A DNA stretch of 64,000 nt from Polyangia bacterium (GTDB lineage: Bacteria > Myxococcota_A > Polyangia > Fen-1088). Shown here in pieces: positions 5,621-61,204 of this stretch (its first letter is position 1; each line of letters opens with the position of its first letter). The stretch lies in contig DATAVR010000099.1 in the NCBI GenBank assembly GCA_036267635.1, positions 54,244-118,243 of the forward strand, written 5' to 3'. Below the pieces are notes generated by a model. That model saw nothing but the letters and a program-made list of their open reading frames with translations, was not told where the DNA came from and did no database searches. Made by a program: the position numbers and the translations under genes.

Positions 5621-8233
5621 ATGCGTAATGTGACAATGCTCAAATCGTTGCTTTGGCCGGCTCTCGGTTGTTTGTTTGCGTCGGCTTGCTCGCTCCCCGC
5701 GCTGAAGGGCGGCGATGCTTCCATTGTCGTCCAAGGCTGCGGCGCCGATGACGCCGGCGTCGCCGACGCTGGCAGCACCGTCATGGCCACCGGGGACGTC
5801 GAGAACGTCATCACGCCCCAGGCCTGCGCGGCGGTGGGCGCCAACCCCAACGCGATCGACAAGTACACGCAGGGCTACGCCTACGCCGACCCGATGATCG
5901 TGAACGAGGTCGAGGCCACGATGACGACCATCAGCGTCGCCGACGAGGCCACGCAGATGCGTGGCATGCCCTACGGCTCGGCGGGGGCGACTCAGTTCAA
6001 CGACATTCAGCGCAGCGAAGACACCGCCACGATTCGCGGCTATCGGTATCGGGACGCCTCGCGCGGCATGAACCTGGGCGAGGACATCGACGGCGCCTTC
6101 GCCACCGCCGGCCTCGTGAACAATTCCCACGTCGGATACTCGACCGCGTTCCCGGTCAGCATGGCCCGCGGCGCCGCCTTCGACCTCGACCTCGAGTACG
6201 CGGTCGGCGAGGCGATCGGCGACGAGATGCAGGCGGCCCAGCAGACGCTGCTGCTGGCCCCCTGTATGAACCTGCTCCGTCATCCCTACTGGGGCCGCGC
6301 GCAGGAGACCTACGGCGAGGATCCCTATCAAATCGGCCGTCTGGCCTCGGCGATGGTGGTCGGCGTCCAGGAGCACATCGCCGCCAACGCCAAGCACTAC
6401 ATGGGTTACGACGTCGAGAACGGCCGCAACACCAACGATGCCGAGATGGTCGACGAGCAGACGCTGCGGGAGATCTACGGCCGCCATTTCCGGATGGTGG
6501 TCCAGGACTCCGGCGTGGCGTCGGTGATGGCCTCCTACAACGAGGTGGACGGCACGAAGTCGACACAGAACCAGCACACGCTGACCGACGTGTTGCGCAC
6601 CGACTTCGGGTTCAAGGGGTTCGTCCTCAGCGACTGGTGGGCGATGCCGGGCGGTCTGACGATCGCCGACTCGAGCTTGCTCAAGAATCAGGCGCTCCAG
6701 GCCCTCCAGGCCGGCCTGGATGTCGAGCTCCCCTGGGGGCTGAACTACGGCCAGCTGGAGAGCCTCTCGAGCTCGCACGCCCTGACGAAGGACCAGCTCG
6801 ATACCTCCGTGAGGCGAATCCTCTACGAGAAGTACCGCTTCAACTCCGACAAGACCACCGGCAACATCGGCCTCAAGGCGCCGGTCACGATCTACGCGAA
6901 CAGCCGGATCAACTGTGACTCGAGCCACCTGGCCCTGGCCAAGCGCGCCGCGCTCGAGAGCATGGTCCTGCTCAAGAACCAGGGCGCTCTCCCCATCAGC
7001 CCGACGGTGAAGAAGATCGCGGTGGTGGGCGCGACGGTTCCCTATCGAACCACCGACGGGGGCTCGACCAACACCGGCGGCAGCATCAACTTCGCCACCG
7101 ACCTGCGCACGGGCGATCTCGGGTCGAGCCGGGTGTTCCCCGACCCGGCCAAGAGCGTGGGCCCCTTCGCCGGCATCTGCGTCGCCTCGGGCGGGATGCC
7201 GAACGGGAGCTCTTGTAGCGGCTCCACGGTCACCGTCACCACGGCCACCAACAACCTCGGCGATCTGGCGCCGATCATGACCGAGATCGCCGATGCCGAC
7301 TTCGTCGTCGTCGTGGCGGGCCTCACCGCCCAGGACGAGGGCGAGGAGTACACCCTGGCCGGCGATCGCAACAGCAACTGCGTCAACGGCGTCAACGGAA
7401 CCGGCAACTGTTTGCTGCTCGATTCCAAGCAGCCCGACTCGAACTACGCCGGGATTCAAAACAAGCTGATCTCCGCGGTGGCTGGCGCGGGGAAACCGAT
7501 GGTGGTCGTGCTCGAGGGGGGCAGCGTGATCGACATGACCCCCTGGCTCTCCTCCGTCCCCGCGGTGGTCATGGCCTGGTACCCGGGACAGCGGGGTGGC
7601 GAGGCGCTGGGCGATCTGCTGTGGGGAGAGGTCGGCGGGACCTCGTACAACTTCGGCGGCAAGCTGCCGTTCACCTGGGGGCACATGAACGACTACTTCC
7701 CGTTCACCGGTCCCAACGGCGCGACGACGTTCGATTACTACGTCGGCTATCGCTACTTCGACAAGAACAACATCGCCCCGGTGTTTCCCTTCGGGTACGG
7801 GCTCAGCTACACGACGTTCGCGCTCAGCAACCTGCAGCTCGGGTGCAGCACCATGACCCAGGGAGCGGTGCTGCCGGTGGTGGTCAACGTCCAGAACACG
7901 GGCACGGTGGCCGGTGACGAGACGCTGATGGTCTTCGTCTCATTCCCCAACACCACCGCGCGCCGGGCGGCCAAGGAGCTGAAGGGCTTCGCGCGCGTGA
8001 GCCTGGCCGCCGGCGAGGCGAAGCAGGTCACGATCCCGGTCCGTCTTTCGGACCTCGACTACTTCCAGGTCGACGCCAACGACCCGACCACCGGCAAATG
8101 GGTGGTGGAGAGCGGACAGGTCAACATCATGGTGACCGACGGCTCCCTCAATCCCAGCGACGGAACCACGCAATTCCCCCTCACGGGAACGGTGAACGTC
8201 ACCGGATACAGCACCGCCGGATCGTCTCAATGA
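5621..8233 (+). CDS. Glycoside hydrolase family 3 lipoprotein (beta-glucosidase / beta-xylosidase type) with a C-terminal fibronectin-III-like domain.
   Basis: An aggag Shine-Dalgarno sits 6 nt upstream of the ATG at 5621. The signal is MRNVTMLKSLLWPALGCLFASAC. GH3 motifs are present: KHYMGYD and GFKGFVLSDWWAM (the nucleophile Asp in SDW). The C-terminal region resembles the GH3 FnIII-like domain. Confidence 0.85.
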   Translation: MRNVTMLKSLLWPALGCLFASACSLPALKGGDASIVVQGCGADDAGVADAGSTVMATGDVENVITPQACAAVGANPNAIDKYTQGYAYADPMIVNEVEATMTTISVADEATQMRGMPYGSAGATQFNDIQRSEDTATIRGYRYRDASRGMNLGEDIDGAFATAGLVNNSHVGYSTAFPVSMARGAAFDLDLEYAVGEAIGDEMQAAQQTLLLAPCMNLLRHPYWGRAQETYGEDPYQIGRLASAMVVGVQEHIAANAKHYMGYDVENGRNTNDAEMVDEQTLREIYGRHFRMVVQDSGVASVMASYNEVDGTKSTQNQHTLTDVLRTDFGFKGFVLSDWWAMPGGLTIADSSLLKNQALQALQAGLDVELPWGLNYGQLESLSSSHALTKDQLDTSVRRILYEKYRFNSDKTTGNIGLKAPVTIYANSRINCDSSHLALAKRAALESMVLLKNQGALPISPTVKKIAVVGATVPYRTTDGGSTNTGGSINFATDLRTGDLGSSRVFPDPAKSVGPFAGICVASGGMPNGSSCSGSTVTVTTATNNLGDLAPIMTEIADADFVVVVAGLTAQDEGEEYTLAGDRNSNCVNGVNGTGNCLLLDSKQPDSNYAGIQNKLISAVAGAGKPMVVVLEGGSVIDMTPWLSSVPAVVMAWYPGQRGGEALGDLLWGEVGGTSYNFGGKLPFTWGHMNDYFPFTGPNGATTFDYYVGYRYFDKNNIAPVFPFGYGLSYTTFALSNLQLGCSTMTQGAVLPVVVNVQNTGTVAGDETLMVFVSFPNTTARRAAKELKGFARVSLAAGEAKQVTIPVRLSDLDYFQVDANDPTTGKWVVESGQVNIMVTDGSLNPSDGTTQFPLTGTVNVTGYSTAGSSQ

Positions 8234-9708
8234 AAACATCTCTCCTGGCCGCCTTCGTTCTTTTGGGATCGTCTTTGGAATCTTCGACGGCCGCCCTCGC
8301 TCAGCAAGCGGCCCCGACACCTCCACCGGCCGCCGCCGCGCCCGCCGACGGGCAACCGGGGCAGCCAGCGCCGGCGCCTCCGTTGATCCTGGTCGTGCCG
8401 CCCCCGACCGCCACCGTGGCGCCCGCGCGCGAGGCCACCGCGGTGATCGGTTCGATTCCGCCACCGCCGGTGCCGGCTGCCGAGGCGGACCCGGTCACCG
8501 AGATCGGCCTCGAGCGGCTCCCCGGGTCGGCCTACCCGGAGCCGCAGACCCGCGGCCTCAAGTACGGTTCGTTGTGGCTGACCTTCCACGGTCTGCAATG
8601 GCCCTACCTGCCCGCCAAGGCCGGCCGCGAACGCTTCGTGATTGGTCTGTCCGGGTGGGGGTGGTTGGACACCGCCTATGAGAAGTTCGCCCCCTGGGGG
8701 CAGAATTCCAATCTGGATTTGAGCCGGATCGCTTACTGGAAACAGCAGGGGCGCATGCTGTTGCGGGTCACGCCCACCTACTCCTTCGAAGATTGGTTCG
8801 TCCAGGGGCAGGTCGAGCTGGTCGGCACCGAGGATCAGACCATCCAGAGAGGGGAAGTCGGCGGCGCCGACACCGACGATCTCTGGCTGCGCCTCGGCCA
8901 GTGGAACCGGTGGGACTTCCAGGTGGGCCGCTTCGAGGGCTGGGAGGTGTTCCACCTCGGGATGGGCCTCGACCAGAACACGTTCGAACGTTCGGGCGCG
9001 GTCGGCAACGGCGAGAACAGCCTTCCGATTTCGTTCTACGGCCTGACCGACAATCAGTTTCGGCCCCAGGGCGCCGCCGGGAACATGGCCGTCCACTACT
9101 ACCCGTTGCCCTTTCTTCGCTTCGAGGTGCTGGGGATGGCGGGGAGCCTGAGCGGGCCGGCCATCGCCACCCGTCCGGTGGCCATCGTCGACCTCGGGTG
9201 GCTCAAGCTCAAAGGGGGCGTGGAGTGGCAGCGCATCACCGGGCAGCAGGCCGACGACCAGACCAACAAGACCTCGAAGGGGGTCGGGGGCGCCATCCAG
9301 TTCGTCTTCGAGCCGCACATCGAGCTCGGCCTCAACGCCGCGCAGGGGACCGTGGTCAGCGTCGACAACTTTGGACGAGCGAATCCCAGCGGGACCTTCA
9401 CCCGCACCAGCTACGGCGGGTTCGCGAACGTCTCCAACGGCAGCGCCCGATATCCTCTGTTGTTCGGCGTGGGCGGTCTCTTCACCCGCAACGTCGATCA
9501 AAACAACGTCGCCAATCCCAATGTCGTGGACAACTACTGGCTCTGGCAAAGCTTCGCCGCCGTCCAGTACGTGGTCTTCAATCAGCTCTACATCAAGCTG
9601 GTCGGCGGTTACTCGCGAGGCCACTGGTTGAACGCCAGCATGAGCCCCGCGCTCCAGTACGACGACGAGATGTACAGCATCCGGCTACGGTTTTCGTTCT
9701 ATTTCTAG
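8230..9708 (+). CDS. Outer-membrane beta-barrel protein (putative porin) with a Pro/Ala-rich N-terminal extension.
   Basis: Its ATG overlaps the GH3 stop codon (ATGA). The signal peptide is MKTSLLAAFVLLGSSLESSTAALA. A Pro-rich stretch comes next, then amphipathic beta-strands that alternate aromatic and Gly residues. The terminus ...SIRLRFSFYF ends in Phe, the OMP signature. Confidence 0.7.
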   Translation: MKTSLLAAFVLLGSSLESSTAALAQQAAPTPPPAAAAPADGQPGQPAPAPPLILVVPPPTATVAPAREATAVIGSIPPPPVPAAEADPVTEIGLERLPGSAYPEPQTRGLKYGSLWLTFHGLQWPYLPAKAGRERFVIGLSGWGWLDTAYEKFAPWGQNSNLDLSRIAYWKQQGRMLLRVTPTYSFEDWFVQGQVELVGTEDQTIQRGEVGGADTDDLWLRLGQWNRWDFQVGRFEGWEVFHLGMGLDQNTFERSGAVGNGENSLPISFYGLTDNQFRPQGAAGNMAVHYYPLPFLRFEVLGMAGSLSGPAIATRPVAIVDLGWLKLKGGVEWQRITGQQADDQTNKTSKGVGGAIQFVFEPHIELGLNAAQGTVVSVDNFGRANPSGTFTRTSYGGFANVSNGSARYPLLFGVGGLFTRNVDQNNVANPNVVDNYWLWQSFAAVQYVVFNQLYIKLVGGYSRGHWLNASMSPALQYDDEMYSIRLRFSFYF

Positions 9709-9733: not shown

Positions 9734-10414
9734 ATGCGCACAGTAAGCACCCTGGTTGGTCTGACGTTGGTCGCGCTCTCGGCCGGGGCCCGCGCGGACG
9801 ATCGCCCCCCCCCGGCTGCGCCCGTTCCGGCGGCCGAGGCGGCCGCCGTGGCGCCGGCCCCTGTCATGCTGGAGCTCCCGCCCTCGCCGCGCCAGCACTG
9901 GCTGGTCGGCCTCTCGTTCCTGCCGATGGGCGCCGGCAGGCTCACGATTCCGGTCGGCGCCATGGAGGTGACCTCGGACGCCTCGTTTGCCTACGGCTTC
10001 AGCCTGTCGGCGAGCTACCTCATCATCGGTGGCTTGAGCGTCGGCGTCGCACCGCAGGCGATCTACAACGTCCAAGACAAGGTGAACCCCAGCCAGCTGG
10101 CCGCCCCGCCGGCGGCCAAGGAATACGACCTGATGGCGCGGGTGGCCTACACCTTTCCGGTCGTGGAGACGATCGGGATCTATCTCGAGGCGCTGCCCGG
10201 GTACTCGCTCATCACGCTGGCCAAAACCGCCACCGCCAAGGGATTTGTCCTCGGCTTCGGCGGCGGCGTCGCCATGGCCGTCTCGGAGCGCACCTTCGCC
10301 AATCTGGGAGTCGGCTATCAGATCGGCTTTCAGTCGATCTCCAACGGCGCCATGAACGTGGATGACCGGTCCAGATACCTTCGCGTGGAGCTGGGCGGCG
10401 GGGTGAAGTTCTAG
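9734..10414 (+). CDS. Small outer-membrane beta-barrel protein (OmpW / OmpA-barrel-like).
   Basis: The signal peptide is MRTVSTLVGLTLVALSAGARA. A Pro/Ala-rich segment follows. The beta-barrel-like body ends in ...LGGGVKF, a C-terminal Phe. Confidence 0.65.
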   Translation: MRTVSTLVGLTLVALSAGARADDRPPPAAPVPAAEAAAVAPAPVMLELPPSPRQHWLVGLSFLPMGAGRLTIPVGAMEVTSDASFAYGFSLSASYLIIGGLSVGVAPQAIYNVQDKVNPSQLAAPPAAKEYDLMARVAYTFPVVETIGIYLEALPGYSLITLAKTATAKGFVLGFGGGVAMAVSERTFANLGVGYQIGFQSISNGAMNVDDRSRYLRVELGGGVKF

Positions 10415-10468: not shown

Positions 10469-12106
10469 GTGTCCCATCGTAACGTCGCAACTGTCGTCCT
10501 TTTGCAATTTACCGCCCTCGTTGTCGTTTGCCTGCTCGTCGGAGACAACGGATGGGACGACGGCGCGATCACTCTGGCCTTTTCCAGGACCTTTGCGCGC
10601 TACGGCCGGATCGCGCTCACGCCGCGCTCTCAAATCGTCGAGGGTTTCTCCTCTGTCTCGTGGTTCCTGCTCAATTCAGCGGCGGCACTGGCCAGGCTGT
10701 CGTACCGCTCGGCGATCGCCGTCGCTCAGGTTCTTTCGGCGCTCTGCATCTGCGCCTCCACGGTGTTGCTGGCCAGGACCTGCGCCCTCCTTCGATTCGA
10801 CCGGCTCTTCGCCACGCTGACCGTGGTCTCCTTTGCGGCCTGGGGCTGCTCCTTCTCAGAGGCCAGCAACGGAATGGAGATGGGCCTCTTGGCCGCGGCC
10901 TTTCTGGTGATGGTCAACGAGCTGCTTTCGCCACGGCCGCGGATGTTCTGGTTGGGGGCCGGCGTCGTCCTGGCCGTGACGACACGCTTCGAGGCGGCGC
11001 TCCCCGTCGCGCTGCTTGCCGGGAGCGTCTTCTCCGTTCCAGGGCGCCGAGCCTTCCGGGTGCTGGCCTCGACCTGCCTGGGCACCGTCCTCCTGCTGTC
11101 CCTCTGGCGGCTCGCCGTTTTCTCGGACGTTCTACCCAACACGTTTTGGGCGAAGCGGTGGCCGCCTTATGCGGCGTTCGGTCTCGCGGACCGGCTGACC
11201 GGCGCCTTGGAGTTACCGGCCTTCTTCCTTTTGCCGCTCCTGGCGGCCGCGATCGCGCGACGCCTGGGTTTCAACCTCGCCGGCGCGCTGCGGCCCCGCC
11301 GCCACGCTTTGATGATTCTCGCTGGTCCGATCTGGGGAGCCATGCTGATCGGCGGTCTGATCGGGAAACACTGGGGCTACCACGGACGAATGCCGTATTT
11401 CGCCTTCCCGCTGGCGTTGTGTCTCTGTTCGCTCGCGCTCTCGTCCTGGGTGGACGCCAAGCGGACCGGGCTTCGGGTCGTGGTTGCGACTGGTCTGTGC
11501 GTCCTCACGGTCGCCGTGTCGATGATCGGGTTCCCCACAGGCTCGCTGAGCGCCGCCTTCGAGGGAGGCGCCTTCGGCGTCACGCCTCACACCTATGCGG
11601 AATCCGGTCGGGTCTTCCGGAGGTTCACCTCCGCCGCCGGGCTGCAACAGGCGACCATTCTCACCGCGGACGTCGGGGGCCTCGCGCTCTGTTGTGACGA
11701 GCTCGCCATCGTCGACCTCGGTTTCCTCTCCAATCGCCAGCTGGCTCACCAGGGGCCCGGGGCGCTGGCAGAGGTCCTCGAAGCCGAGTCGCCCGAGCTC
11801 GTCGAGGCGCACTGGGAATGGGCCGCCGCAGGGAAGCTGTACGACTTGCCCTACTTCCGCGCTCGCTACCGGCCGGCGTTTGCCGGCAGAACCAAACTGT
11901 GGATTCGACGCGACGTCGCCGGCGCCATTGAACGCGCCGGACGGGGATGCAGCGTGGCCGTGGAGAGAGAGGACGTTCGAGAGGCGCTGCACACCCATCG
12001 CTACGCAGGTCACGACTTGCCTGAGGACCGAAGAAGCTTCGAGGCCTCGGGGATCATCCTCACTCTCAACGAGGGCGGGTCACTCGCCGGGAACCCATGC
12101 GAGTAG
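10469..12106 (+). CDS. Polytopic inner-membrane protein, a possible GT-C-fold glycosyltransferase (about 10 transmembrane helices plus a C-terminal soluble domain).
   Basis: The 545-aa ORF has multiple hydrophobic helices (LLQFTALVVVCLLVG, LLAAAFLVMVNELL, FFLLPLLAAAIARRL, and others). A soluble C-terminal domain of about 130 aa follows. It sits next to GT-C genes. Confidence 0.45.
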   Translation: MSHRNVATVVLLQFTALVVVCLLVGDNGWDDGAITLAFSRTFARYGRIALTPRSQIVEGFSSVSWFLLNSAAALARLSYRSAIAVAQVLSALCICASTVLLARTCALLRFDRLFATLTVVSFAAWGCSFSEASNGMEMGLLAAAFLVMVNELLSPRPRMFWLGAGVVLAVTTRFEAALPVALLAGSVFSVPGRRAFRVLASTCLGTVLLLSLWRLAVFSDVLPNTFWAKRWPPYAAFGLADRLTGALELPAFFLLPLLAAAIARRLGFNLAGALRPRRHALMILAGPIWGAMLIGGLIGKHWGYHGRMPYFAFPLALCLCSLALSSWVDAKRTGLRVVVATGLCVLTVAVSMIGFPTGSLSAAFEGGAFGVTPHTYAESGRVFRRFTSAAGLQQATILTADVGGLALCCDELAIVDLGFLSNRQLAHQGPGALAEVLEAESPELVEAHWEWAAAGKLYDLPYFRARYRPAFAGRTKLWIRRDVAGAIERAGRGCSVAVEREDVREALHTHRYAGHDLPEDRRSFEASGIILTLNEGGSLAGNPCE

Positions 12107-12108
12107 CC

Positions 12109-13653
12109 TCACGGATTGGCCGGATGGGTCTGAACCGGAAAGTAGAACAGCCCGTCGTGGGTTGCGTAGTTGCTCCGGACGAAGCGCAGGAAACGAGGCC
12201 CGAGGGCAATCAGCTCGACGTCCAGCGCAATGAGCGCAGGTTTGACCTTCCCGCTTTCCAGCGCGCCCAAATAGGCGTCCTTGTCACTCTCGGAGAGCAT
12301 GGCCAGCAGCTCTCCATGCATGAAGAAGTAATAGAGCGGATGCGGACGAAATACGTCGGTCCCCAGCCAGCCGTCCAGCACCGGGTCGGTCGGTCCGGTG
12401 TGCTCGAAGACATAGCGCAGCCTCGCCGCCTGTCGGTCGTCTCGCCGGGTAAAGACCGACCTGGCCAGATCGACCACCGGCCATACGGAGAGCAGCAGAA
12501 TCGCCCAGACGAGCAAGCGCGCGGCGCGCCCGCGATCTTGCACCAATCCTGCCAGGAAGGAGAGGCCCTGCCCGGCAAGCAGGCAGGCGATCGTGAGCGG
12601 CATGAGGTAATACTGTCGATACAGGGCCGGCACGATCGGAACTCCGGCGATGAGCCCGCCCAGGATGCAGAGCAGCAGGAGATCGCCGTGGCGGCGCGCC
12701 CTGGACGCTCCGACGATCGAGAAGAGCAGCATGGGCCAACTGGTCGCCAGCGTCACCAGGAGGTGTCTGTCCGAACGCAACCGCCACCTCGCGTTGAGGA
12801 GGAAGTTGTTGTAAATGAATTGATTGCCGACCCCGTTAGCGGCGAAACCGATCCAGGTGACGACCGCTGGAATGGCGACGCCCGCGAAGACGGCCAGCAG
12901 GGCGCGCACCCGGGCGGTCAACAGCCGCCGACGGCCGGCCAACGCCCAGAGCCCGAGGCCCAGGAACGCACCGGGAAGAACGAAGAGCACCTTCTGGGTG
13001 CACATGATTGCGGCCCCGAGGCAGAGGCCGCCGCCCAGAAACCAGCCCAGGCTCGGCGTCGCCGACTCCTCACCCTCGAGGAGCGCGCGCAGAAGAAACC
13101 AGAGTGCGCCAATGAAGAACAGAAGCGCGGGCACGTCGGGGCGGATCTCCAGGGTCTTCTGGATAATGACGGGCTGCCCCACGAAGAAGAACGCGGCCAG
13201 GAGGCCCACTCTGCGATTGGCCACCAGGCGCCCGAGGCGGAAGACCAGAGCCGCGCAGAGCGCGCTCAACACGAACGAGAGGACACGACCGAAGATCAGG
13301 AAGCGCCGGGCAGATTCGAAGGACTGATCGACCGCGAAGCAATGAAAGAACGGCGAGAGCGCGAAGTAGTACCAGGGCGTGTGATGCTCGAAGAAGTCCC
13401 GGTAGGGAAGCAGCCCCTTGAACAGGCTCCAGGCCGCGTGGGAATGCTCGAGCTCGTCGGGATCGAAGAACCGAACGGGAATCGCCGGGAGGCGGGCGAT
13501 CAAGAGACCGACGGTCGCCACCAGCAGAAACGTATCCAGGCGCGATCCGGTCTCTCCGCGCGAGGGCGTGCCACGAACTGCCGCAGTTGGCCGTCCGTCG
13601 TCATCGAGGTGCATTGCGGGTCGTTTTTTACATCGGACCGCCATCGGACGCAC
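12109..13653 (-). CDS. GT-C-fold glycosyltransferase of the PMT / ArnT type (GT39/GT83-like, polyprenyl-phosphate-sugar dependent).
   Basis: The 514-aa ORF has the first-loop acidic motif FFDPDELEHSHAAWSLFKG (the DE motif). About 11 transmembrane helices and a C-terminal periplasmic domain follow. Confidence 0.65.
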   Translation of the reverse strand: MRPMAVRCKKRPAMHLDDDGRPTAAVRGTPSRGETGSRLDTFLLVATVGLLIARLPAIPVRFFDPDELEHSHAAWSLFKGLLPYRDFFEHHTPWYYFALSPFFHCFAVDQSFESARRFLIFGRVLSFVLSALCAALVFRLGRLVANRRVGLLAAFFFVGQPVIIQKTLEIRPDVPALLFFIGALWFLLRALLEGEESATPSLGWFLGGGLCLGAAIMCTQKVLFVLPGAFLGLGLWALAGRRRLLTARVRALLAVFAGVAIPAVVTWIGFAANGVGNQFIYNNFLLNARWRLRSDRHLLVTLATSWPMLLFSIVGASRARRHGDLLLLCILGGLIAGVPIVPALYRQYYLMPLTIACLLAGQGLSFLAGLVQDRGRAARLLVWAILLLSVWPVVDLARSVFTRRDDRQAARLRYVFEHTGPTDPVLDGWLGTDVFRPHPLYYFFMHGELLAMLSESDKDAYLGALESGKVKPALIALDVELIALGPRFLRFVRSNYATHDGLFYFPVQTHPANP

Positions 13654-13712
13654 CCGTTCGAGGCGGTCCCAACCGACGGTGGCCGGGTGACCGGTCGAGG
13701 TAGATTCCCCTC

Positions 13713-15380
13713 GTGAGCGACAGCCCGCGCACGGCGCTTGCAGCGGCCGCTCCGGCGACGCCCCGTGATCCGGTGGGCGCCCTCGCCGGTCTCACCGACA
13801 CGCGCTTGACCCTGTTCGTCGCGGCGGCGTTGTTCGCCTTGGCCGCCTGGCCACTGCTGCTGGTGAGCCTGCCGCCTTTTCAAGATCTCCCGAATCACGT
13901 GGCCACCGCGCACATCGTGGCGCATCCCGACCTCTATCCTCAATTCGCCTTCAACGGCCTCCTCAAATCGAATTGCCTGCTCACGCTCTGGTTCTGCGTC
14001 TTCGGCGGTCACGGCCTGTTCGGAGCCGCCCGGGCCTTCACCGCCTTGGTCTTGGCCGCGAATGCGCTCGCCCTCCCTCTGTTCGTGCTTCGGTTTTCCG
14101 GCCGGCCCCACCTGCCCGTCGCGGCGCTCTTTGTGTGGCCCCTGGTGCACAGCTTTTCGGTCTCCATGGGATTTCTGAATTTCGCGTTCGCCTTTGCGCT
14201 GTCGTTGATCTTGTTGACGGTGATCGACCGACAGCGGGAGCACCCGACCCAAGGACGTGCCTGGGGAATCGCCGCCCTCTCGGTGGTGATCTGGTACGCG
14301 CATCCGTTCCCGTTGGCGGTGGTGGGCGCGCTGGTCGCGTTGCACGCCGCGAGCCGCGCCACCTGGCCGGCGCGAATCACGGCCGGGCTCACCCTGCTGC
14401 TGCCTCTCGCTCCGGCGGGGATCTTGTCCCTGCTCTCGGCACAGCGGCACCTCATCAAGACGGAGCATTCTTCGGCGGCGGCCGCCACGTTCCTCTACCT
14501 CAACCCGTGGGAAACGGCCGAGCACCTCTGGCTCGACGTCTCGGGCGCTCTCACCCGCTGGGGCGGCATGACGGTCATTCCGGCGCTGCTGTTGCCGTAC
14601 TTCGCCTGGAGGCAACGGCGGGTGGCCCGCCCTTTCCTGTCGGCTCCCGCAATGGCGATCCTCGCCGCCGCCTACTTCGCCCTGCCGGTGATGCTGAGCA
14701 ATTGGAATTACCTCAACTGTCGGTTGGTGCCGTTCTTGTGGGTCGGGCTGGCATTGCGGCTCCCCAACAATCTGCCACGGCCGGTGGTGGTCGTGCTGGC
14801 GGTTTGCGCGCTCGCGTTTTCGGCGATCCTGGGCGTCGACTACCTCAGGCTGGACCGTGACCGGGCCGAGTTCACCGCCGGAATTGACGCCGTACCGGAG
14901 GGGGCCACGTTGCTTCCCTTGATGTTCCAGCGGCGCAAGACCAGTTATTTCACCGCCAGCCTGACCCACGCCTGGGGTTACTACACGGTCGCCAAAGACA
15001 CCTCGGCGCCGCTGGTGTTCGGGGTGGAACGCTCCTACCCCATCACCTACCGCGAGTTTCCGCCGCGCAAGCTGATCCCGCCCGCCCTCGATCGATTCGC
15101 CGAGCGCTACGGAGCTCCCGCCCAGGTGTGCAAAATGCTCGGCCAGGCCCCGGCCGACGCGGCCTGTACCGCGGCCTGGCGTGAGCTCTGGGCTGGTTTC
15201 TGGCAGGAGGCAGAGCCCCGCTTCAGCCATTTGCTCACCTGGGCCATTCCACCCGAAGCGCGATCGATGATTCCCGGGCGTTTCCATCGCGTCTTCGCCG
15301 CCGGCGCGCTAGAGATCTACGCGCGAGAGGCTTCGGCGGCCTCGTCTACCCGGCAATTGGAGGGGAGGGCCGCAATGTGA
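13713..15380 (+). CDS. Polytopic membrane protein with a C-terminal soluble domain (GT-C-like, family unassigned).
   Basis: The 555-aa ORF has at least nine hydrophobic helices in the first ~370 aa. A C-terminal hydrophilic domain of about 170 aa follows. It is co-directional with, and immediately upstream of, the GT4 gene. Confidence 0.45.
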   Translation: MSDSPRTALAAAAPATPRDPVGALAGLTDTRLTLFVAAALFALAAWPLLLVSLPPFQDLPNHVATAHIVAHPDLYPQFAFNGLLKSNCLLTLWFCVFGGHGLFGAARAFTALVLAANALALPLFVLRFSGRPHLPVAALFVWPLVHSFSVSMGFLNFAFAFALSLILLTVIDRQREHPTQGRAWGIAALSVVIWYAHPFPLAVVGALVALHAASRATWPARITAGLTLLLPLAPAGILSLLSAQRHLIKTEHSSAAAATFLYLNPWETAEHLWLDVSGALTRWGGMTVIPALLLPYFAWRQRRVARPFLSAPAMAILAAAYFALPVMLSNWNYLNCRLVPFLWVGLALRLPNNLPRPVVVVLAVCALAFSAILGVDYLRLDRDRAEFTAGIDAVPEGATLLPLMFQRRKTSYFTASLTHAWGYYTVAKDTSAPLVFGVERSYPITYREFPPRKLIPPALDRFAERYGAPAQVCKMLGQAPADAACTAAWRELWAGFWQEAEPRFSHLLTWAIPPEARSMIPGRFHRVFAAGALEIYAREASAASSTRQLEGRAAM

Positions 15381-15477
15381 ACGCAACCAGTGATCCGCGC
15401 GTTATGGACGCGTCAAAATGTGGACATTTGCGTCGAGCTCGACCGCTTGACCAGCATGAAGTGCTGAGGTAACCGCC

Positions 15478-16656
15478 ATGGATCCAATGCGTCGTCTGCG
15501 CGTCGGTATCGTAGCCGAGAGCTACTACCCAACCCTGGGAGGCATTCAGGAGCACGTGCGCCATCTGCGCAACCTCCTCCGGCGACAGGGCGTGGAGGTC
15601 ACGATTCTGACCGGACGTCCGACCGCCTCGGCCGGGTCGGCCGTGCTTGGGCCCGAAGACGCCGACCAGGACGTGATTCGGGTCGGGCGCGCCCGCACCT
15701 ACCGCACCGGCGGGACCTTCAGCCAGGCGACGATCGGCCCACGGGTCGCCTACAACTTCCATCGCGCCCTCCGCCAGGGGCAGTTCGATCTCCTCAACAT
15801 TCACGGGCCCTGCGACTTCGGCCTGGCGTTCCTGGCGCTCGCCATGTTTCGCGGGCCCAAGGTCTTGACGCTGCACAACGCCAGCTTTCCCGACGCGCGT
15901 TGGCGACATCGCGTGGCACCCTACTACCGCTGGGTTTTCCGTCGAGCCGCCGCGGTCATCGCCGTTTCCGAGGCGACCGCACAATCGATGGGTCGCTATG
16001 CCGACTTCCAATCGACCATCATTCCCAACGGCATCGACGTCCCCTACTGGCGCTCGCGCCCGAGCGCCGCGCGCGTTCACCCCGGAACGCGGAACCTCGT
16101 CTATCTCGGGCGGCTCGAGCAGCGCAACGGACCGGAAATAGCAATCGAGGCGTTCAGCCGCATCGCCTCCTCATTGCCGGACGTCCGACTGGTCGTGGCC
16201 GGCGACGGCCCCATGCGGCCTGCTCTGCAGGCGCAGGTACCGCCGCACCTGCGGGCGCGCGTCGATTTCCTCGGCGCCGTCTACGACCAGCGCCCGGAGA
16301 TCCTGGCCTCGTCGTCGGTGTTCCTGCTGCCGGCGCGCGCGGTCGGATTTTCAATCATGGTGCTGGAGGCTTTTGCCGCCGGCCTACCGGTGGTGGCGCT
16401 TCCCGCGCTCGGCGCAGATCGCGCGGGCGATCATTGGTCGAACGTCATCATGACCAAGGAGAACAGCGCCTCGGCGTTCGCCGATGCCGTGTTCGACACG
16501 CTCCGGCAGGATCAGGGCGCGCGCATCGCGCGCGGGCGAGCCATCGCCGAGGCGTTCGACTGGCAGAAGATCGGTGGTCGAATCCTCGACGTCTTCCACC
16601 GCGTCGCTGGGACGCCCACCGAGCGAGCGATCTCCCGCTCGAAGGCCGCGGCGTAG
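15478..16656 (+). CDS. GT4-family glycosyltransferase (GT-B fold, PimA/PimB-like).
   Basis: The sequence reads MDPMRRLRVGIVAESYYPTLGGIQEHV... and then VLEAFAAGLPVVA (the EX7E motif region). The N- and C-terminal Rossmann halves are typical of GT4. Confidence 0.8.
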   Translation: MDPMRRLRVGIVAESYYPTLGGIQEHVRHLRNLLRRQGVEVTILTGRPTASAGSAVLGPEDADQDVIRVGRARTYRTGGTFSQATIGPRVAYNFHRALRQGQFDLLNIHGPCDFGLAFLALAMFRGPKVLTLHNASFPDARWRHRVAPYYRWVFRRAAAVIAVSEATAQSMGRYADFQSTIIPNGIDVPYWRSRPSAARVHPGTRNLVYLGRLEQRNGPEIAIEAFSRIASSLPDVRLVVAGDGPMRPALQAQVPPHLRARVDFLGAVYDQRPEILASSSVFLLPARAVGFSIMVLEAFAAGLPVVALPALGADRAGDHWSNVIMTKENSASAFADAVFDTLRQDQGARIARGRAIAEAFDWQKIGGRILDVFHRVAGTPTERAISRSKAAA

Positions 16657-16696
16657 ACGCGCATGGGCCCGAGGCGCGCGCAGGGATGAATCGCCC

Positions 16697-17629
16697 GTGA
16701 AGCACCGCGCCTGGAAGACCGCCCTGCGCTCGCTTCCGCTCCTCTTGCTGGGCGTCGTTCTGTGGCGCGAGAAGCCCTGGACAGTCCGACTCTCGCCGAA
16801 CGCTCCCTGGGCGGTGGCGGCGGCCGTCCTGCTGAACTTCGCAGTTTTTCTACCGCTCAAGGCGGCCCGCTGGCGGGTGGTCTTGAGAGATCCGCCGCCC
16901 TTCCGCAGGGTGTGGGCCGCGACGATCGAAGGCCTGCTGGCCAACGCCGCCCTGGGGTTCGGCAGCGGAGACGTGGTTCGCGCAGCCCGTTTGCGGGAAG
17001 AGGGAGCCCAGCTGGCGGTCGACTACGGTTGCATCTGGGCGGAGCGCGGCGCCGAGCTGCTCGCTTTCGCCGTCCTGATCTTCATCACCGCGTTGGCGAC
17101 GAAGCTCGGGACTTTCGGCTTCGGTCTCTCCGGCCTGGCCACCGCGGCCTATGCCGCGCTGCTGGGCGCCGGCCGCTTTCTCGTCCCCCGTTTGGGCCGC
17201 TGGCCACGGGTGCAGCGGGCGCTGTCGTCGGGGTTGCAGGCCTCCACACCTCGGCGGGTGACGGCGATGGTTGCGCTCTCCCTGCTCGGGTGGTCGAGCG
17301 AGATCGTGATGCTGGTGCTGTTCCAGGGCGCCTTTCATCTGGCGCCCAGCTTCGGCATGGCTCTCCTGACCCTGGTGGGCATCAACGCCGCCATCGCCAT
17401 TCCGACCCTGCCGGGAAATTTTGGGACCTACGAGGCCGGCGCCACGACGGCGCTGGTCATGTCAGGCGCACCGCGCGAGGTGGCCGTCTCTTACGCTCTC
17501 GTCTTTCACCTGACCCACGTAATCCCGGTCGCCGTGGTGGCGACGGTGGTCTATCTCGTCCGCTCTCACGGCCGCTCCGCCAACCGCCGATACAAGACCA
17601 CGCCCGCGCGAACCTCCGCCGGCCGATAG
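16697..17629 (+). CDS. UPF0104 membrane protein resembling the lysyl-phosphatidylglycerol-synthase transmembrane region (a 'flippase-like' domain).
   Basis: I put the start at the in-frame GTG after the GT4 stop. The upstream track ORF overlaps GT4. There are about eight transmembrane helices. The conserved motif RAARLREEG... reads like the LPG_synthase_TM family. This family often accompanies glycosyltransferases. Confidence 0.55.
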   Translation: MKHRAWKTALRSLPLLLLGVVLWREKPWTVRLSPNAPWAVAAAVLLNFAVFLPLKAARWRVVLRDPPPFRRVWAATIEGLLANAALGFGSGDVVRAARLREEGAQLAVDYGCIWAERGAELLAFAVLIFITALATKLGTFGFGLSGLATAAYAALLGAGRFLVPRLGRWPRVQRALSSGLQASTPRRVTAMVALSLLGWSSEIVMLVLFQGAFHLAPSFGMALLTLVGINAAIAIPTLPGNFGTYEAGATTALVMSGAPREVAVSYALVFHLTHVIPVAVVATVVYLVRSHGRSANRRYKTTPARTSAGR

Positions 17630-19218
17630 TGCGCGTCGACGTAGGCGCGCAGGCGCGGGTATCGCGCCAGCGGATATTTTTGGTAGCCGTCCCAGCCGGC
17701 GGCGGCGGCGTCGACGAACAGCACCGGGCGACGTCGTTCGAGGTCGGCGAACAACATCTCCCAGGCTGCCGGCAATTGATTGGCGTCGGCGTTCCGCGCC
17801 CCGGTCTCGGTGGGTGTCCCCGGGCTCTCGCCGGTCAGGTAGTTGCAGAACGAAAACCGCGCGCCCATCGGGCGCCGCGCCAACACGTAAAGCTGCGGGG
17901 AGTTTCCCCACACGAAGACGCGTTCGTCGACGGCGGTCAGGTCGGCGATGCGGGCCGCGACCTCGCGGTAGCTCGGCTCACCTTCGTCCAGCGCGGCGGC
18001 GAGTGGTCTGCCGACGGTCGCCAGCAGAAAGAAAAGCAGAGCCGGCAGCGCGCAGAGCACCACCAGGGGCGCCCGATACGACCAGCCCTTGCTCCAGAGC
18101 CGACAGAAACCGGGCGCGGCCAGCAGGCAGAGCGGCGCCAGGATCAGGTGGAAGTAGTGCCCGAAGAAACGACCGCCGGCCGTCACGGAGACGGTCGAGG
18201 TCACCAGCCAGAGCAGGCCCAACACCACCGACGGTGAAGGCTGGTCGGTATCGACCGCAGGCGCTCCGGCGAGCCGGCGGCGTATCGCCCGAACGACCCT
18301 CGTCGCCGCCGAGAGCGCGGCCGAGAGGCCGAGGGCGTAGGGAACGAGGGCCACCCCGCCGATGAGCGCCGTTCGGCGCACGCCGCGCGCAATGGCCGCG
18401 AGCCCGGTCAGGCCAGCCTGGAGGTACGAAAAGTTGAACTTGAACCAATAGATCGCGGCCGCGGCGTTGCCGGCGCCGCGGCACCACAAAAGGTAGAGCG
18501 CGGGCGGAAGCAGGGCCCCGGCGATCTGACAGAGCGCCATGGCCACGGCCCACCTCGCCGACGCCCGTCCGAGGATCACCCACCAGACGAGGAGACCGAT
18601 CGAAGCGCCGAGGAAACTGAGCCCCTGATACTTGAACAGGGCCGAGGTTCCAATCAGCACGCCGACCACCAGCTGGGTCGCCCATCCGCGCGCGCCGTGA
18701 GGCAGCGCTTCGTCGACGCCAAGATCTCGCAGACCAAGATCTCGCAATAGCAGCCAGGCGGCGATCGCCTGGGGCGCCAGCAGGAACAGCTCGCAATTCG
18801 CCGCCAGCGCGTCGTAGTCGTGCCAGGTCGTCCCGAAAACCAAAAACAGTCCGGCCGACGCCAGGGCTATGCCTCCGGAAGGCCCGGCGCCCGGGGCGGC
18901 CCCGGCCCCCTCGCGCCACTTGATGGCAAAGAGAAATCCCGCCGTGAGCAGCACCGCCAGGATGACCAGCGCATGAGCCCCCTGCGTGTTGTACGGCCCG
19001 AGGGCCGCGAAGCCGGCCTGATAGACGTGATAGATGAGCGGCGGTTTGTGATCGACGACGTCGCGGTAGAGCAGATCGCCGCGCATCAACGCGTCGGCGG
19101 TCGTCGCGTAGATCGCTTCGTCGTCAGAGAGAAGCGGTCGACCAAAGGTCGGCACGCGCAGGAAAACCCCCAAAACGAAGGTCGCCAGCACGAACGCCTT
19201 GAACGTCCGCATGGGCAT
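17566..19218 (-). CDS. GT-C glycosyltransferase, ArnT/PMT-like (GT83/GT39).
   Basis: The sequence reads MPMRTFKAFVLATFVLGVF...RPLLSDDEAIYATTADALMRG. This places the DE motif in the first periplasmic loop. About 12 transmembrane helices and a C-terminal periplasmic domain follow. The gene is divergent from the GT2 gene. Confidence 0.65.
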   Translation of the reverse strand: MPMRTFKAFVLATFVLGVFLRVPTFGRPLLSDDEAIYATTADALMRGDLLYRDVVDHKPPLIYHVYQAGFAALGPYNTQGAHALVILAVLLTAGFLFAIKWREGAGAAPGAGPSGGIALASAGLFLVFGTTWHDYDALAANCELFLLAPQAIAAWLLLRDLGLRDLGVDEALPHGARGWATQLVVGVLIGTSALFKYQGLSFLGASIGLLVWWVILGRASARWAVAMALCQIAGALLPPALYLLWCRGAGNAAAAIYWFKFNFSYLQAGLTGLAAIARGVRRTALIGGVALVPYALGLSAALSAATRVVRAIRRRLAGAPAVDTDQPSPSVVLGLLWLVTSTVSVTAGGRFFGHYFHLILAPLCLLAAPGFCRLWSKGWSYRAPLVVLCALPALLFFLLATVGRPLAAALDEGEPSYREVAARIADLTAVDERVFVWGNSPQLYVLARRPMGARFSFCNYLTGESPGTPTETGARNADANQLPAAWEMLFADLERRRPVLFVDAAAAGWDGYQKYPLARYPRLRAYVDAHYRPAEVRAGVVLYRRLAERP

Positions 19219-19246
19219 GGAGCGCGATGATATACAGGGGAAGTCG

Positions 19247-20233
19247 ATGGCGGCTCCCATCCTTTCGTTGGTTCTTCCCATCTACAACGAGGAGGCGATC
19301 ATCCCCGAGCTCGACCGCCGGCTGCGCGCATTCCTGGCCGATGTGGGGAGCGGCGTCGGCGAAGCGTGGGAGGTCATCTTCGTCGACGACGGCTCGCAGG
19401 ATCGGTCGCTGCCGCTGTTGAAAGAGCTGGCGGCGGCCGAGCCGCGCTACAAGGTCCTCTCGCTCTCCCGCAACTTCGGGCATCAGATGGCGATCACCGC
19501 CGGTCTCGATCGCGCCAACGGCGACGCGGTGGTGGTGATGGACGCCGATCTGCAGGATCCGCCGGAGGTGGTCCGCCAGATGGTGGCCAGGTGGCGGGAA
19601 GGGTTCGACGTGGTGTTCGCCGTTCGCTCGCGGCGACACGGAGAGACCGCCTTCAAGAGGTTCACCGCCGCGCTTTACTATCGCCTGCTGCGCGTGCTGC
19701 TGGGAGGCGCTCAGATTCCGGTCGACGCGGGGGACTTTCGGCTGATGAGCCGCCCCGTCGTGCTGACGCTGCGGGCCCTGCGCGAGCAACACCGGTTCGT
19801 GCGCGGTCTCGTCTGGTGGGTCGGCTTTCGCCAGACCTCCGTCGCCTACGAACGCCCGGCCCGCTTCGCGGGCGAGACGAAGTATCCGTTGCGCCGGATG
19901 TTCCGCTTCGCCGTCGACGGAATCACCTCCTTCTCCACGGTGCCGCTGCGCATGGCGACCTGGTTCGGCGTGCTGGCCGGCGTGACGGCGATGGGCGGCG
20001 GCGTCTGGGCGGTGTGGGAGAAGCTCTTCGGGACGGGCGTCGTCAAGGGATGGACGACGATCATGATCCTCGTCGGCCTCGGCTCGTCGGCGCAGCTGCT
20101 GATGACCGGGATCCTGGGCGAATACATCGGACGCATCTACGAAGAGGTGAAGCGCCGGCCGCTCTACGTGGTGCAGGACGAGATCAACCTGCCCAGTCTC
20201 CAACCCGCGCGCGACAGAGACGCGCGCGGGTAG
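19247..20233 (+). CDS. GT2-family polyprenyl-phosphate glycosyltransferase (ArnC / GtrB / dolichyl-phosphate-mannose-synthase-like).
   Basis: The sequence has MAAPILSLVLPIYNEEAIIPEL and a DxD motif in VVVMDADLQDPPEV. Two C-terminal transmembrane helices are present (MATWFGVLAGVTAMGGGVWAV; TTIMILVGLGSSAQLLMTGILG). This architecture is typical of ArnC/GtrB-type enzymes. Confidence 0.8.
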   Translation: MAAPILSLVLPIYNEEAIIPELDRRLRAFLADVGSGVGEAWEVIFVDDGSQDRSLPLLKELAAAEPRYKVLSLSRNFGHQMAITAGLDRANGDAVVVMDADLQDPPEVVRQMVARWREGFDVVFAVRSRRHGETAFKRFTAALYYRLLRVLLGGAQIPVDAGDFRLMSRPVVLTLRALREQHRFVRGLVWWVGFRQTSVAYERPARFAGETKYPLRRMFRFAVDGITSFSTVPLRMATWFGVLAGVTAMGGGVWAVWEKLFGTGVVKGWTTIMILVGLGSSAQLLMTGILGEYIGRIYEEVKRRPLYVVQDEINLPSLQPARDRDARG

Positions 20234-20239
20234 CATCGG

Positions 20240-21316
20240 TCAGCTCCCGGCCAGCGCGGCGGCGATGCCCGCGGCCATCGGCTTCGGGCGGTAGTCGGCG
20301 TCGAAGGGCAACGGGTAGTGCGGCCGCCGCCCGCGCAAGCCGCTCCAATCGGGATCGTTGAGCCAGGAGTAGCGATCGGTGAAGCCCCAGAACGTGACGC
20401 CGGAACAGGCGGAGACGGCGACGCAGGCCGCGACGATGTCGTGTGTGAGGCGCTTCTGCTCCTCCAGCTTCTGCGCGCGTGTCCCCGACATCTCACCGAC
20501 GGGGACGTCCATCTCGGTGAGCTCGACGGCCAGGCCCAGCGCGGCGAACCGCTCGAGGTTTTGCCGGATGATCTCTGCGGGCGGCCAGTGCCGCGGGTCG
20601 ACGTGCATCTGAAATCCGACCCCGCCGAGCGGAACGCCCGCCGCCTTCAGGCGCTGCGCCAGCTGGTAGACCGCCTCCGCCTTCGGCGTCCCCAGCCCCT
20701 CGATCTCGTAGTCGTTGTAGAAGAGGAGCGCGTCCGGATCGGCGGCGTGCGCCGCCCGGAAGGCATCCTCGATGAACGCCGGCCCCAGCGCCGTGAACGG
20801 AGAATCGTGGCGCAGCTCGCCGCCCGGTCCATCGGCGAAGGCCTCGTTGACCACGTCCCACTGGCGGACCTTCCCTTTGAAGTGCGCCACCACGTTGGTC
20901 ACGTGTCGGATCATCGCCGCGTGCAGCGCCTCGCCCGGAAGGCCGCTGACCCACGGGGCCAGCTGGGTGTGCCAGACCAAGGTGTGGCCGCGGACGCGCA
21001 TGTCGTTCTGCTGGGCGAACGCCACCAGGGCGTCACCGGAGTGAAAGGCGAACTGGCCCGGGCTCGGCTCGACGTTCACCCACTTCATGTCGTTCTCGGG
21101 CGTGAGTGAATTGAAGTTCGCCGCCAGCACCTTGGCGAACGTCGCCTCGCGCAGCCGTTGCGCCTCGACCGCGGCGCCGATCCGGCGCGCGCCCGCGACG
21201 CTCCGAAGCGGAGGGATCTGGGGCGCGGCAGCCATCGCCCCACCCGCCGGCGCCCGCGCCGGAACGATGCAACCAGAGAGGAGAAGGACCAGGAGGCCGC
21301 CAAGTCGCCGGTTCAC
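20240..21316 (-). CDS. GH10 endo-1,4-beta-xylanase lipoprotein.
   Basis: The start is GTG. The signal is MNRRLGGLLVLLLSGC. GH10 motifs are present: TPENDMKW, WDVVNEAF (the acid/base Glu) and ELTEMDV (the nucleophile Glu). Confidence 0.85.
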   Translation of the reverse strand: MNRRLGGLLVLLLSGCIVPARAPAGGAMAAAPQIPPLRSVAGARRIGAAVEAQRLREATFAKVLAANFNSLTPENDMKWVNVEPSPGQFAFHSGDALVAFAQQNDMRVRGHTLVWHTQLAPWVSGLPGEALHAAMIRHVTNVVAHFKGKVRQWDVVNEAFADGPGGELRHDSPFTALGPAFIEDAFRAAHAADPDALLFYNDYEIEGLGTPKAEAVYQLAQRLKAAGVPLGGVGFQMHVDPRHWPPAEIIRQNLERFAALGLAVELTEMDVPVGEMSGTRAQKLEEQKRLTHDIVAACVAVSACSGVTFWGFTDRYSWLNDPDWSGLRGRRPHYPLPFDADYRPKPMAAGIAAALAGS

Positions 21317-21388
21317 GGCGGCGATGATACGTCGGTCCGCGCGTGGTCGAGCGCAGAACGTGGCCGTCGCGAACGGCGGGTTCGCCGA

Positions 21389-61191: not shown

Positions 61192-61204
61192 CGAAACGCT
61201 TGAG

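Follow-up and report, generated by a model that had tools for sequence, protein, structure and literature searches.

For the extracytoplasmic assembly of glycans from polyprenyl-phosphate sugars by several glycosyltransferases of the GT-C fold, the mycobacterial cell wall is the best-known example. The set that produces phosphatidylinositol mannosides, lipomannan, and lipoarabinomannan (PIM, LM, and LAM) in mycobacteria and corynebacteria comprises the GT4 enzymes PimA and PimB', a flippase, Ppm1, and the GT-Cs PimE, MptA, MptB, MptC, AftB, AftD, and EmbC. In another described arrangement, the three-component scheme, a GT2 makes the polyprenyl-phosphate sugar and is joined by a flippase and by a GT-C in the periplasm (PMC11127046). 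Here, we analyzed a 64,000-nucleotide (nt) stretch of DNA from a Polyangia bacterium (referred to as the window), focusing on positions 10469 to 20233, where a cluster of seven genes encodes four GT-Cs (named A, B, C, and D), a GT4, a flippase-like LPG_synthase_TM protein, and a GT2.

Periplasmic glycosylation by GT-Cs that depends on polyprenyl-phosphate sugars is very probably the enzymatic class of this locus. As to its product, we give about an even chance (probability of ca. 0.5) to the reading that this is a conserved Polyangia locus that uses lipid-linked sugars to assemble a lipid-anchored envelope glycan on the periplasmic side of the inner membrane. The three-component scheme accounts for the GT2 and the GT-Cs and, given the operon formed by C, the GT4, and the flippase-like gene, a lipid-anchored glycan would be the most economical model. 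No earlier description of such a cluster was found in the literature. If Gram-negative soil myxobacteria have a multi-GT-C, GT4-primed route, this type of glycosylation would have a wider use, the building of whole envelope glycoconjugates and not just their decoration.

Gene content and conservation of the cluster

Given the high G+C content of the window (ca. 68%), open reading frames (ORFs) were accepted only when they had a coding-type codon-position GC pattern (GC3). All the genes named in an earlier reading of this DNA, made from its letters alone (the sequence-only reading), were found on such ORFs where it had placed them, and its myxobacterium-like host is indeed a myxobacterium of the class Polyangia. 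The cluster is composed of four divergent GT-C-fold enzymes, a PimA-like GT4, a stand-alone MprF-type flippase-like protein, and a GtrB-type GT2 (Table 1), in transcription units that switch strand.

The window proteins were compared by tblastn with 80 metagenome loci and with 16 loci from Polyangia genomes. The recurring gene order was C-GT4-LPG_synthase_TM-D-GT2, with D on the opposite strand and a convergent A/B pair upstream in either orientation. Dozens of independent Polyangia contigs share this order, with proteins 55 to 88% identical, so that the synteny check proposed by the sequence-only reading returned the same genes in the same order. Counting only loci with enough flanking sequence, the GT4 came directly after C in 45 of 63 loci, followed by the flippase-like gene (41 of 54), D (32 of 45), and the GT2 (18 of 40), while A or B was found upstream in 39 of 62. 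B was always paired tail to tail with A. In the window, the two end 2 nt apart, and the flippase-like gene and D overlap, also tail to tail, by 64 nt (17566 to 17629). In roughly half of the related loci (L001 to L119), the whole A/B pair had the opposite orientation, and in some it was absent. A block of two glycoside hydrolase genes (GH30 and GH3) and two genes for putative outer-membrane proteins (X8098 and OMP) accompanies the cluster. It precedes A, which is the arrangement of the window, or else its GH30/GH3 part is located downstream of the GT2 (L002, L005, and L070).

These genes might be neighbors without a joint function, brought together by a chance accumulation of membrane glycosyltransferases; their transcription units alternate strands, and the link between them is a genomic one. 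However, the set and its order are kept across dozens of contigs at the identities given above, and chance co-location is unlikely because the order survives both the A/B inversion and the relocation of GH30/GH3. We therefore consider this explanation very improbable. The cluster genes are inherited together.

A, C, and D each had hundreds of close homologues (60 to 88% identity), nearly all of them from soil or peat metagenomes and from metagenome-assembled genomes (MAGs) labeled Polyangia, Myxococcales, or Labilithrix. All were annotated as hypothetical, and all but one lacked a Pfam domain. A protein identical to D (550 amino acids [aa]) has been deposited from an NCBI Polyangia MAG, and family C comprises at least 814 clusters at 50% identity. 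One Polyangia MAG (L007), without C-GT4-LPG_synthase_TM-D-GT2 nearby, has B in a second copy that has diverged (49% identity) and that precedes an OMP homologue (18990 to 21328), 6 kb past its A/B pair.

TABLE 1 Features of the 64,000-nt window that are discussed in the text
Feature	Position	Strand	Assignment and evidence
GT-C A	10469-12106	+	Unclassified family, distantly AftB-like; candidate pentofuranosyltransferase
GT-C B (514 aa)	12109-13653	-	Pfam PMT_2 (PF13231), E value 9e-12; first-loop motif FFDPDELEH
GT-C C	13713-15380	+	Unclassified family
GT4	15478-16656	+	GT-B fold, retaining, PimA-like; Pfam Glyco_transf_4 and Glycos_transf_1
Flippase-like protein (310 aa)	16697-17629	+	LPG_synthase_TM/UPF0104/PplT; Pfam PF03706, E value 7e-33, 114.8 bits
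GT-C D (550 aa)	17566-19218	-	Remote paralogue of B by sequence; first-loop motif SDDEAIY
GT2	19199/19247-20233 (probable start, 19247)	+	GtrB-like polyprenyl-phosphate-hexose synthase by sequence; Glycos_transf_2, E value 2e-31
GH30 lipoprotein	3191-5395	+	Cys-rich repeats; Pfam Glyco_hydro_30 (E value 1e-24) and GH30C
GH3 exo-glycosidase	5459-8233	+	Pfam N- and C-terminal domains of GH3 and an Fn3-like domain
X8098 (ca. 490 aa)	8230-9708	+	Putative large outer-membrane beta-barrel; signal peptide, C-terminal ...IRLRFSFYF beta-signal
OMP (226 aa)	9734-10414	+	Putative small outer-membrane beta-barrel; Pfam OMP_b-brl, E value 1.2e-5
DprE1-like FAD enzyme	28961-30400	+	NCBIfam DprE1 equivalog NF053785
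GT87-family GT-C	59896-61311	-	Pfam, E value 2.7e-21

The GT-C enzymes, their donors, and the acceptor

B matched Pfam PMT_2 well above the gathering score (45.9 versus 26.1 bits). A, C, and D were below this threshold and had no Pfam match even at an E value of ≤10 and no NCBIfam match. Among their relatives, a single member of family D (with a precomputed match) and a single distant member of family A matched PMT_2 (PF13231) weakly. Searching the PDB (phmmer and hmmsearch) with B, D, the profile of each, and the C profile gave no match. When the D- and B-family profiles were aligned with hhalign, they matched over 449 columns with a probability of 95.4% (E value 1.7e-8), as they also did in an independent local run; because of this alignment and the PMT_2 match in one D-family member, we regard D, at the level of profile comparison, as a remote paralogue of B. 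B and D were the only related pair in pairwise BLAST and hhalign comparisons among the four. A and C, which show no sequence relationship with one another or with B/D, are therefore not recent paralogues of B/D. The family A profile had AftB as its sole, weak (22 bits) sequence match in the PDB, while the best fold matches of the C structure model were AftA and AftD (predicted local distance difference test [pLDDT] of 64.5, with Foldseek E values of >0.05).

With the GT-C fold indicated by Pfam PMT_2 for B and by the alignment to B (probability of 95%) for D, and by the matches just given for A and C, profiles and models together identify A, B, C, and D as four GT-C glycosyltransferases. The sequence-only reading had counted two clear and two probable GT-Cs and had named transporters as an example of the families to which these polytopic proteins might instead belong; all four proved to be GT-Cs, each with an invariant first-loop Asp. 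These acidic residues follow the first transmembrane (TM) helix in every family: D30/D31 in the motif GWDDG (GWDDGAIT) of A; D64, D66, and E67 (D64-x-D66-E67) in B; D58, unchanged down to 25% identity, in the motif PPxQDLPNH of C; and D32-D33-E34 (550-aa numbering) in D. In the structure models, which did not include D, the invariant residues sit just before the first juxtamembrane helix (JM1), at its N-terminal end. AftB and other GT-CA enzymes have their essential Asp in this place, in the first extracytoplasmic loop (PMC12041299). By analogy, the invariant Asp residues of A to D are candidate catalytic residues, placed as in GT-CA enzymes. A and C represent two sizeable GT-C families without a Pfam or NCBIfam model, for both of which candidate catalytic residues can now be named.

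Regarding topology, the positive-inside count was clear for B only (24 versus 12 K/R), crude hydropathy missing helices in A, C, and D, for which the orientation adopted here is the one predicted from the fold. Two near-invariant Cys residues in the C-terminal domain of C were taken as support for a periplasmic location of this domain. Pfam PMT (PF02366), MIR, and PMT_4TMC had no match in A to D at an E value of ≤0.01, nor in A, C, and D at ≤10. For lack of these domains, a GT39 protein O-mannosyltransferase identity was rejected for all four.

The closest PDB relative of the GT2, over its full length, was GtrB of Synechocystis (sll0501; E value 2e-80, residues 11 to 331 versus 17 to 332), ahead of ArnC (5e-48) and of archaeal dolichol-phosphate mannose synthase (DPMS) (5e-15). 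Its best NCBIfam match was PgfS (E value 3e-78, 263 bits, for an equivalog cut-off of 500), and the ArnC equivalog NF007986 gave 163 bits (E value 7e-48) for a cut-off of 529. The protein carries a DXD-type motif, DADLQD, and two hydrophobic (TM) helices at its C terminus. These similarities identify it as a GtrB-type polyprenyl-phosphate hexose or N-acetylhexosamine (HexNAc) synthase; the sequence-only reading was therefore right about a polyprenyl-phosphate-sugar synthase, while its ArnC/Ppm1 type has to be replaced by GtrB.

The resemblance to ArnC, together with PMT_2 proteins that belong to the wider ArnT superfamily, might indicate a canonical arnBCADTEF locus for lipid A aminoarabinose. 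Nevertheless, all ORFs between 3191 and 21316 were assigned to other families, with no ArnA, ArnB, ArnD, or ArnE/F among them; the ArnC equivalog score fell far below its cut-off, with GtrB a far better match; and the B and D profiles had no ArnT match by sequence in the PDB. The ORFs scanned across the window included no formyltransferase/decarboxylase, DegT aminotransferase, deformylase, or SMR genes. The Arn reading, which retains next to no credibility, was rejected since the conserved block has no ArnA/B/D/E/F-type gene and the GT2 is nearer to GtrB than to ArnC, in agreement with the previous statement that this is not a textbook Arn locus.

PimA was the best PDB match of the GT4 (E value 2e-28, ca. 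27% identity), along its full length (residues 6 to 382) and including the acceptor-binding N-domain. The next match, PimB', had an E value of 6e-11, making PimA better by 17 orders of magnitude, in keeping with the name PimA/PimB-like under which this gene was first listed. In the alignment with PimA, the GGxQ and E-x7-E regions line up, and an Asn of the cluster GT4 pairs with the residue that we take to be K202 of PimA. Because the best solved relative over the full length, acceptor domain included, is the lipid-glycosylating PimA, the acceptor of this GT4 would be a lipid.

The flippase-like protein, the start of which was set from the N termini of its homologues, matched the TIGR00374 flippase-like domain in addition to PF03706, as expected from its previous designation as UPF0104. 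An aminoacyl-phosphatidylglycerol synthase domain (DUF2156) was not found in it, and the bifunctional MprF model NF033480 gave 14.8 bits (E value 0.006) for a cut-off of 600. Since PF03706 is the only domain in its 310 aa, the protein is, judging by its domain content, a stand-alone MprF-type (PplT) protein and not a bifunctional MprF. Its gene adjoins that of the GT4. Fusions of GT-B and PplT are known in Actinobacteria, Nitrospirae, Chloroflexi, and Acidobacteria (preprint, 10.1101/2022.03.11.483950), and archaeal UPF0104 genes co-occur with PMT/STT3-like proteins and an AglD-like GT2 (Makarova et al. 2015, PMC5898192). This adjacency, the fusions, and the archaeal neighborhoods argue for a coupling between GT4 and flippase. 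The cluster also offers a clean genetic context for the question of whether stand-alone UPF0104/PplT proteins flip glycolipids or polyprenyl-phosphate sugars.

The GT-C content of the locus is not entirely fixed. In a related Polyangia contig (L125, 15534 to 18222), the A slot holds a different, PMT_2-like GT-C of 551 aa and a second GT2 with two C-terminal TM helices, as if one cassette had been swapped for another in the manner of serotype-converting modules. A GT-C slot that varies in this way, with A/B inverted or absent elsewhere, would fit a decoration system of the Gtr/Arn type, as would the closeness of the GT2 to GtrB and the combination of GT2, flippase, and GT-C, which is the established three-component scheme (PMC11127046). 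The GT-Cs would then add single side-chain sugars to lipopolysaccharide (LPS) core or lipid A, O-antigen, or exopolysaccharide made elsewhere, with the flippase-like protein flipping the polyprenyl-phosphate sugar. We find this doubtful. Known decoration modules are usually accessory, with one GT-C each, whereas here four GT-Cs and a cytoplasmic GT4 are kept as a unit, at 55 to 88% identity, in many lineages. Besides, genes for a polysaccharide backbone (Wzx/Wzy, ABC transporter, or initiating phosphoglycosyltransferase) were not present beside the cluster, and the pairing of GT4 and flippase points to a lipid-linked primer.

For A, the comparisons suggest a donor other than the product of the cluster GT2, possibly a polyprenyl-phosphate pentofuranose, on the grounds of its AftB-only profile match, the company of its distant homologues, and the A slot of L125 with a GT2 of its own. 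In an Acidobacteriaceae MAG (L018, 10001 to 13971) and a Paraburkholderia MAG (L025, 2130 to 5264), the A homologue lies directly beside a HAD-UbiA fusion protein, and the pair is bordered by unrelated housekeeping genes. Both fusions have the NDxxDxxxD motif and are 43% identical to each other; a HAD-UbiA fragment was found in a third locus (L032, 11745 to 12365). HAD plus UbiA is the architecture of polyprenyl-phosphoribose synthase (PPPRS) (Kelly et al. 2024, PMC11127046), and the pair of A homologue and HAD-UbiA protein may be a minimal pentofuranose glycosylation module. When the neighbors of 22 distant A homologues were clustered all against all, no widely recurrent family emerged, the PPPRS pair being found in two loci. 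In Epilithonimonas bovis (L030, 9383 to 16503), the genes near the A homologue include those for a GT87, a GT4, a GtrB-like GT2, and a polysaccharide deacetylase, so that a cultured, tractable member of the Bacteroidota has a parallel multi-GT-C set. The link between family A and PPPRS in Acidobacteriota and Burkholderiales leads to a testable prediction of the donor, a pentofuranose.

Under the model of a lipid-anchored envelope glycan, a nucleotide sugar would supply the hexose (or HexNAc) that the GT2 loads onto undecaprenyl phosphate on the cytoplasmic side, where the PimA-like GT4 would glycosylate a membrane lipid acceptor. The flippase-like protein would carry the GT4 product, the polyprenyl-phosphate sugar, or both to the outer leaflet. 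There, B, C, and D would extend or branch the lipid-anchored glycan with polyprenyl-phosphate hexose, and A would add a residue from a different donor, probably a polyprenyl-phosphate pentofuranose made elsewhere in the genome. The coinherited beta-barrels and GH30/GH3 suggest that the product may end at, or be remodeled near, the outer membrane.

Several points weigh against this model. Its product, donor sugar, and acceptor are all predictions from sequence. The GT4 has a low identity to PimA, and no inositol or phosphatidylinositol (PI) synthesis genes were seen in the window. The match of A to AftB is weak, the model of C has a modest confidence and Foldseek E values above 0.05, and hydropathy gives a clear topology for B alone. 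A GtrA-, SMR-, or MATE-type flippase is not present, and glycolipid flipping by stand-alone UPF0104 proteins is only putative. Most of the distant A loci have no PPPRS nearby, and both the window and the Polyangia loci compared proved to be without one. Finally, enzymes of the PMT_2 family can also glycosylate proteins or lipid A.

Flanking and more distant genes

In many contigs, GH30 and GH3 adjoin the glycosyltransferase genes, be it on one side or on the other, and this adjacency hints at a functional link, e.g., trimming or turnover of the glycan. The GH30 protein, with a lipoprotein signal (MKTARVWTLGLGLAFLAAAC) and an MXAN_6577-like Cys-rich domain, had endo-1,6-beta-glucanase as its best NCBIfam match (E value 3e-33). 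The GH3 matched beta-xylosidase and beta-glucosidase models of NCBIfam, all under cut-off, and was immediately upstream of X8098-OMP in 14 of the loci compared. Along with GH10, GH8, and a BNR protein, these enzymes make the surroundings as rich in glycoside hydrolases as the sequence-only reading described them.

X8098 had no Pfam, NCBIfam, or PDB match, and OMP scored 26 bits against OMP_b-brl, just under the gathering score of 28.7, and ends in ...GGGVKF. Both have a signal peptide followed by a Pro/Ala-rich linker and a C-terminal aromatic beta-signal, features from which we infer that they are putative outer-membrane beta-barrels. They are syntenic with each other and with the cluster, and they could serve in export, in anchoring, or as targets of glycosylation. 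A Pro/Ala-rich linker after the signal peptide is an unusual feature for beta-barrels.

These coinherited, linker-bearing barrels and the several adjoining secreted glycoside hydrolases could be the targets of protein O-glycosylation, in which the GT2 would make a polyprenyl-phosphate sugar and B and D (perhaps also A and C) would modify Ser/Thr residues of secreted or outer-membrane proteins, much like actinobacterial Pmt/Ppm1 or the Pgf machinery of Streptococcus mutans. The PMT_2 assignment of B, with D as its paralogue, is compatible with such a role, and PgfS, the best NCBIfam match of the GT2, is part of the Pgf protein-glycosylation system. Nonetheless, we think it unlikely: there was no PF02366 or MIR match, the PgfS score is far under the equivalog cut-off, the linkers are poor in Ser/Thr, and the operon-linked PimA-like GT4 and lipid flippase-like gene would be left unexplained.

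Beyond the cluster, the sequence-only reading had added a DprE1-like oxidase and a GT87 to the set. Both genes are present. The DprE1-like protein matched NF053785 over its full length (E value 6e-140) with 467 bits, for a cut-off of 500. Its gene sits between GH8 and a glutathione S-transferase gene; genes for GH10, P-II, a GTPase, small regulators, phosphofructokinase, and pyruvate kinase lie between it and the cluster. The closest relative on a long contig keeps the window order only up to GH8, and in the next relative (L125) an unrelated oxidoreductase occupies the corresponding position. The 40 kb from the cluster to the GT87 contain a resistance-nodulation-division (RND) efflux operon and numerous unrelated genes; the neighbors of the GT87 are a RibD_C-like gene and a 321-aa ORF that has no family. 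With housekeeping genes in between and a different gene at the DprE1 position in L125, a linkage to the cluster is not demonstrable; the two genes are possible contributors elsewhere in the same pathway. A motif search over the coding-type ORFs of the window revealed no DprE2-like short-chain dehydrogenase/reductase (SDR) and no UbiA, and Pfam scans of the remaining window ORFs no pentofuranose-pathway partners. A complete DprE1/DprE2 plus UbiA system in the window was consequently rejected, with DprE1 itself below its cut-off and no SDR or UbiA partner. The second NAD-binding protein of the sequence-only reading, if taken as SDR-type (DprE2-like), has no counterpart and probably corresponds to the NmrA-like gene seen in the closest relative. 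The literature contained nothing relevant on DprE1 or arabinofuranose in Myxococcota.

Two other genes of the window appear unrelated to the cluster: one for a DUF255 thioredoxin-domain protein (YyaL-like) at 638 to 2977 on the minus strand, upstream of GH30, and one for a CotH-kinase-like protein with a MopE metal-binding motif at 44441 to 45994 on the plus strand.

Comparison with known systems

With the GT39 PMT/Ppm1 pair and the Pgf system of Streptococcus mutans, the cluster shares PMT_2-family GT-Cs and a GT2 with PgfS as its best NCBIfam match. It differs from them in having no PMT (PF02366), MIR, or PMT_4TMC domains and in scores far under the equivalog cut-offs, as well as in the presence of a GT4 and a flippase-like gene. 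The archaeal AglD/UPF0104 neighborhoods and the bacterial GT-B-PplT fusions couple UPF0104 to a glycosyltransferase and, as here, to GT-C-like proteins, whereas in the cluster these are separate proteins, in a bacterial host, with four GT-Cs. The functions of those archaeal and fusion systems are themselves only predicted (PMC5898192; 10.1101/2022.03.11.483950).

Regarding the three-component systems (GtrA/GtrB/GtrC, CsbB/GtcA/YfhO, and ArnC/ArnEF/ArnT), the likeness is in the GtrB-like GT2, the putative flippase, and the GT-Cs with a first-loop Asp. However, there are four GT-Cs instead of one, plus a GT4; the flippase candidate is MprF-type (UPF0104) and not GtrA, SMR, or MATE; and the cluster is a conserved core locus and not an accessory module. 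The pentofuranose three-component system (PPPRS, a MATE flippase, and a GT136 GT-C) is approached by the A homologues beside HAD-UbiA proteins in L018 and L025 but differs in that no PPPRS or MATE gene was seen beside A in the window or the Polyangia loci. The first-loop GWDDGAIT of A can be set against D31, E34, and Y35, reported as essential in the GT136 enzyme ORF12 of C. youngae, an enzyme for which the nearest sequence relative is ArnT and not AftB (PMC11127046).

In its logic, the PIM-LM-LAM pathway is the nearest analogue. The cluster also pairs a cytoplasmic GT4 nearest to PimA with a polyprenyl-phosphate-sugar synthase and several periplasmic GT-Cs. AftB is the only sequence relative of A in the PDB, AftA and AftD are the best fold matches of C, and a DprE1 near-equivalog and a GT87 are found elsewhere in the window. 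Taken as best matches (PimA, AftB, AftA/AftD, DprE1, and GT87), the resemblance to an actinobacterial toolkit noticed in the sequence-only reading stands. In contrast, the host is a Gram-negative member of the Polyangia and none of the cluster genes appears to be an orthologue. The synthase of the donor has TM helices and is of the GtrB type instead of the Ppm1/DPM1 type. The window has no PI-synthesis, DprE2, or UbiA genes, its DprE1 and GT87 have no demonstrable linkage to the cluster, and the cluster has an explicit flippase-like gene.

A mycobacterial-style lipoglycan, i.e., a hexan primed on PI, ceramide-phosphoinositol, or a glycolipid and capped with pentofuranose, is a speculative and rather improbable extension of the lipid-anchored model. 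It would be made by a PimA-like primer enzyme, an MprF-type glycolipid flippase, and four GT-Cs, two of them founding new families. If true, such a molecule would be a major surface component of the outer membrane and could partly replace or complement LPS. Sorangium, a cultured relative of the source lineage, has been reported to have no LPS. By analogy, the logic of the cluster would be that of mycobacterial PIM/LM/LAM synthesis, carried out with parts that appear not to be orthologous. The general scheme is already known, and what is new here are those parts, the uncultured Polyangia host, two GT-C families without a Pfam or NCBIfam model, and an MprF-type candidate flippase.

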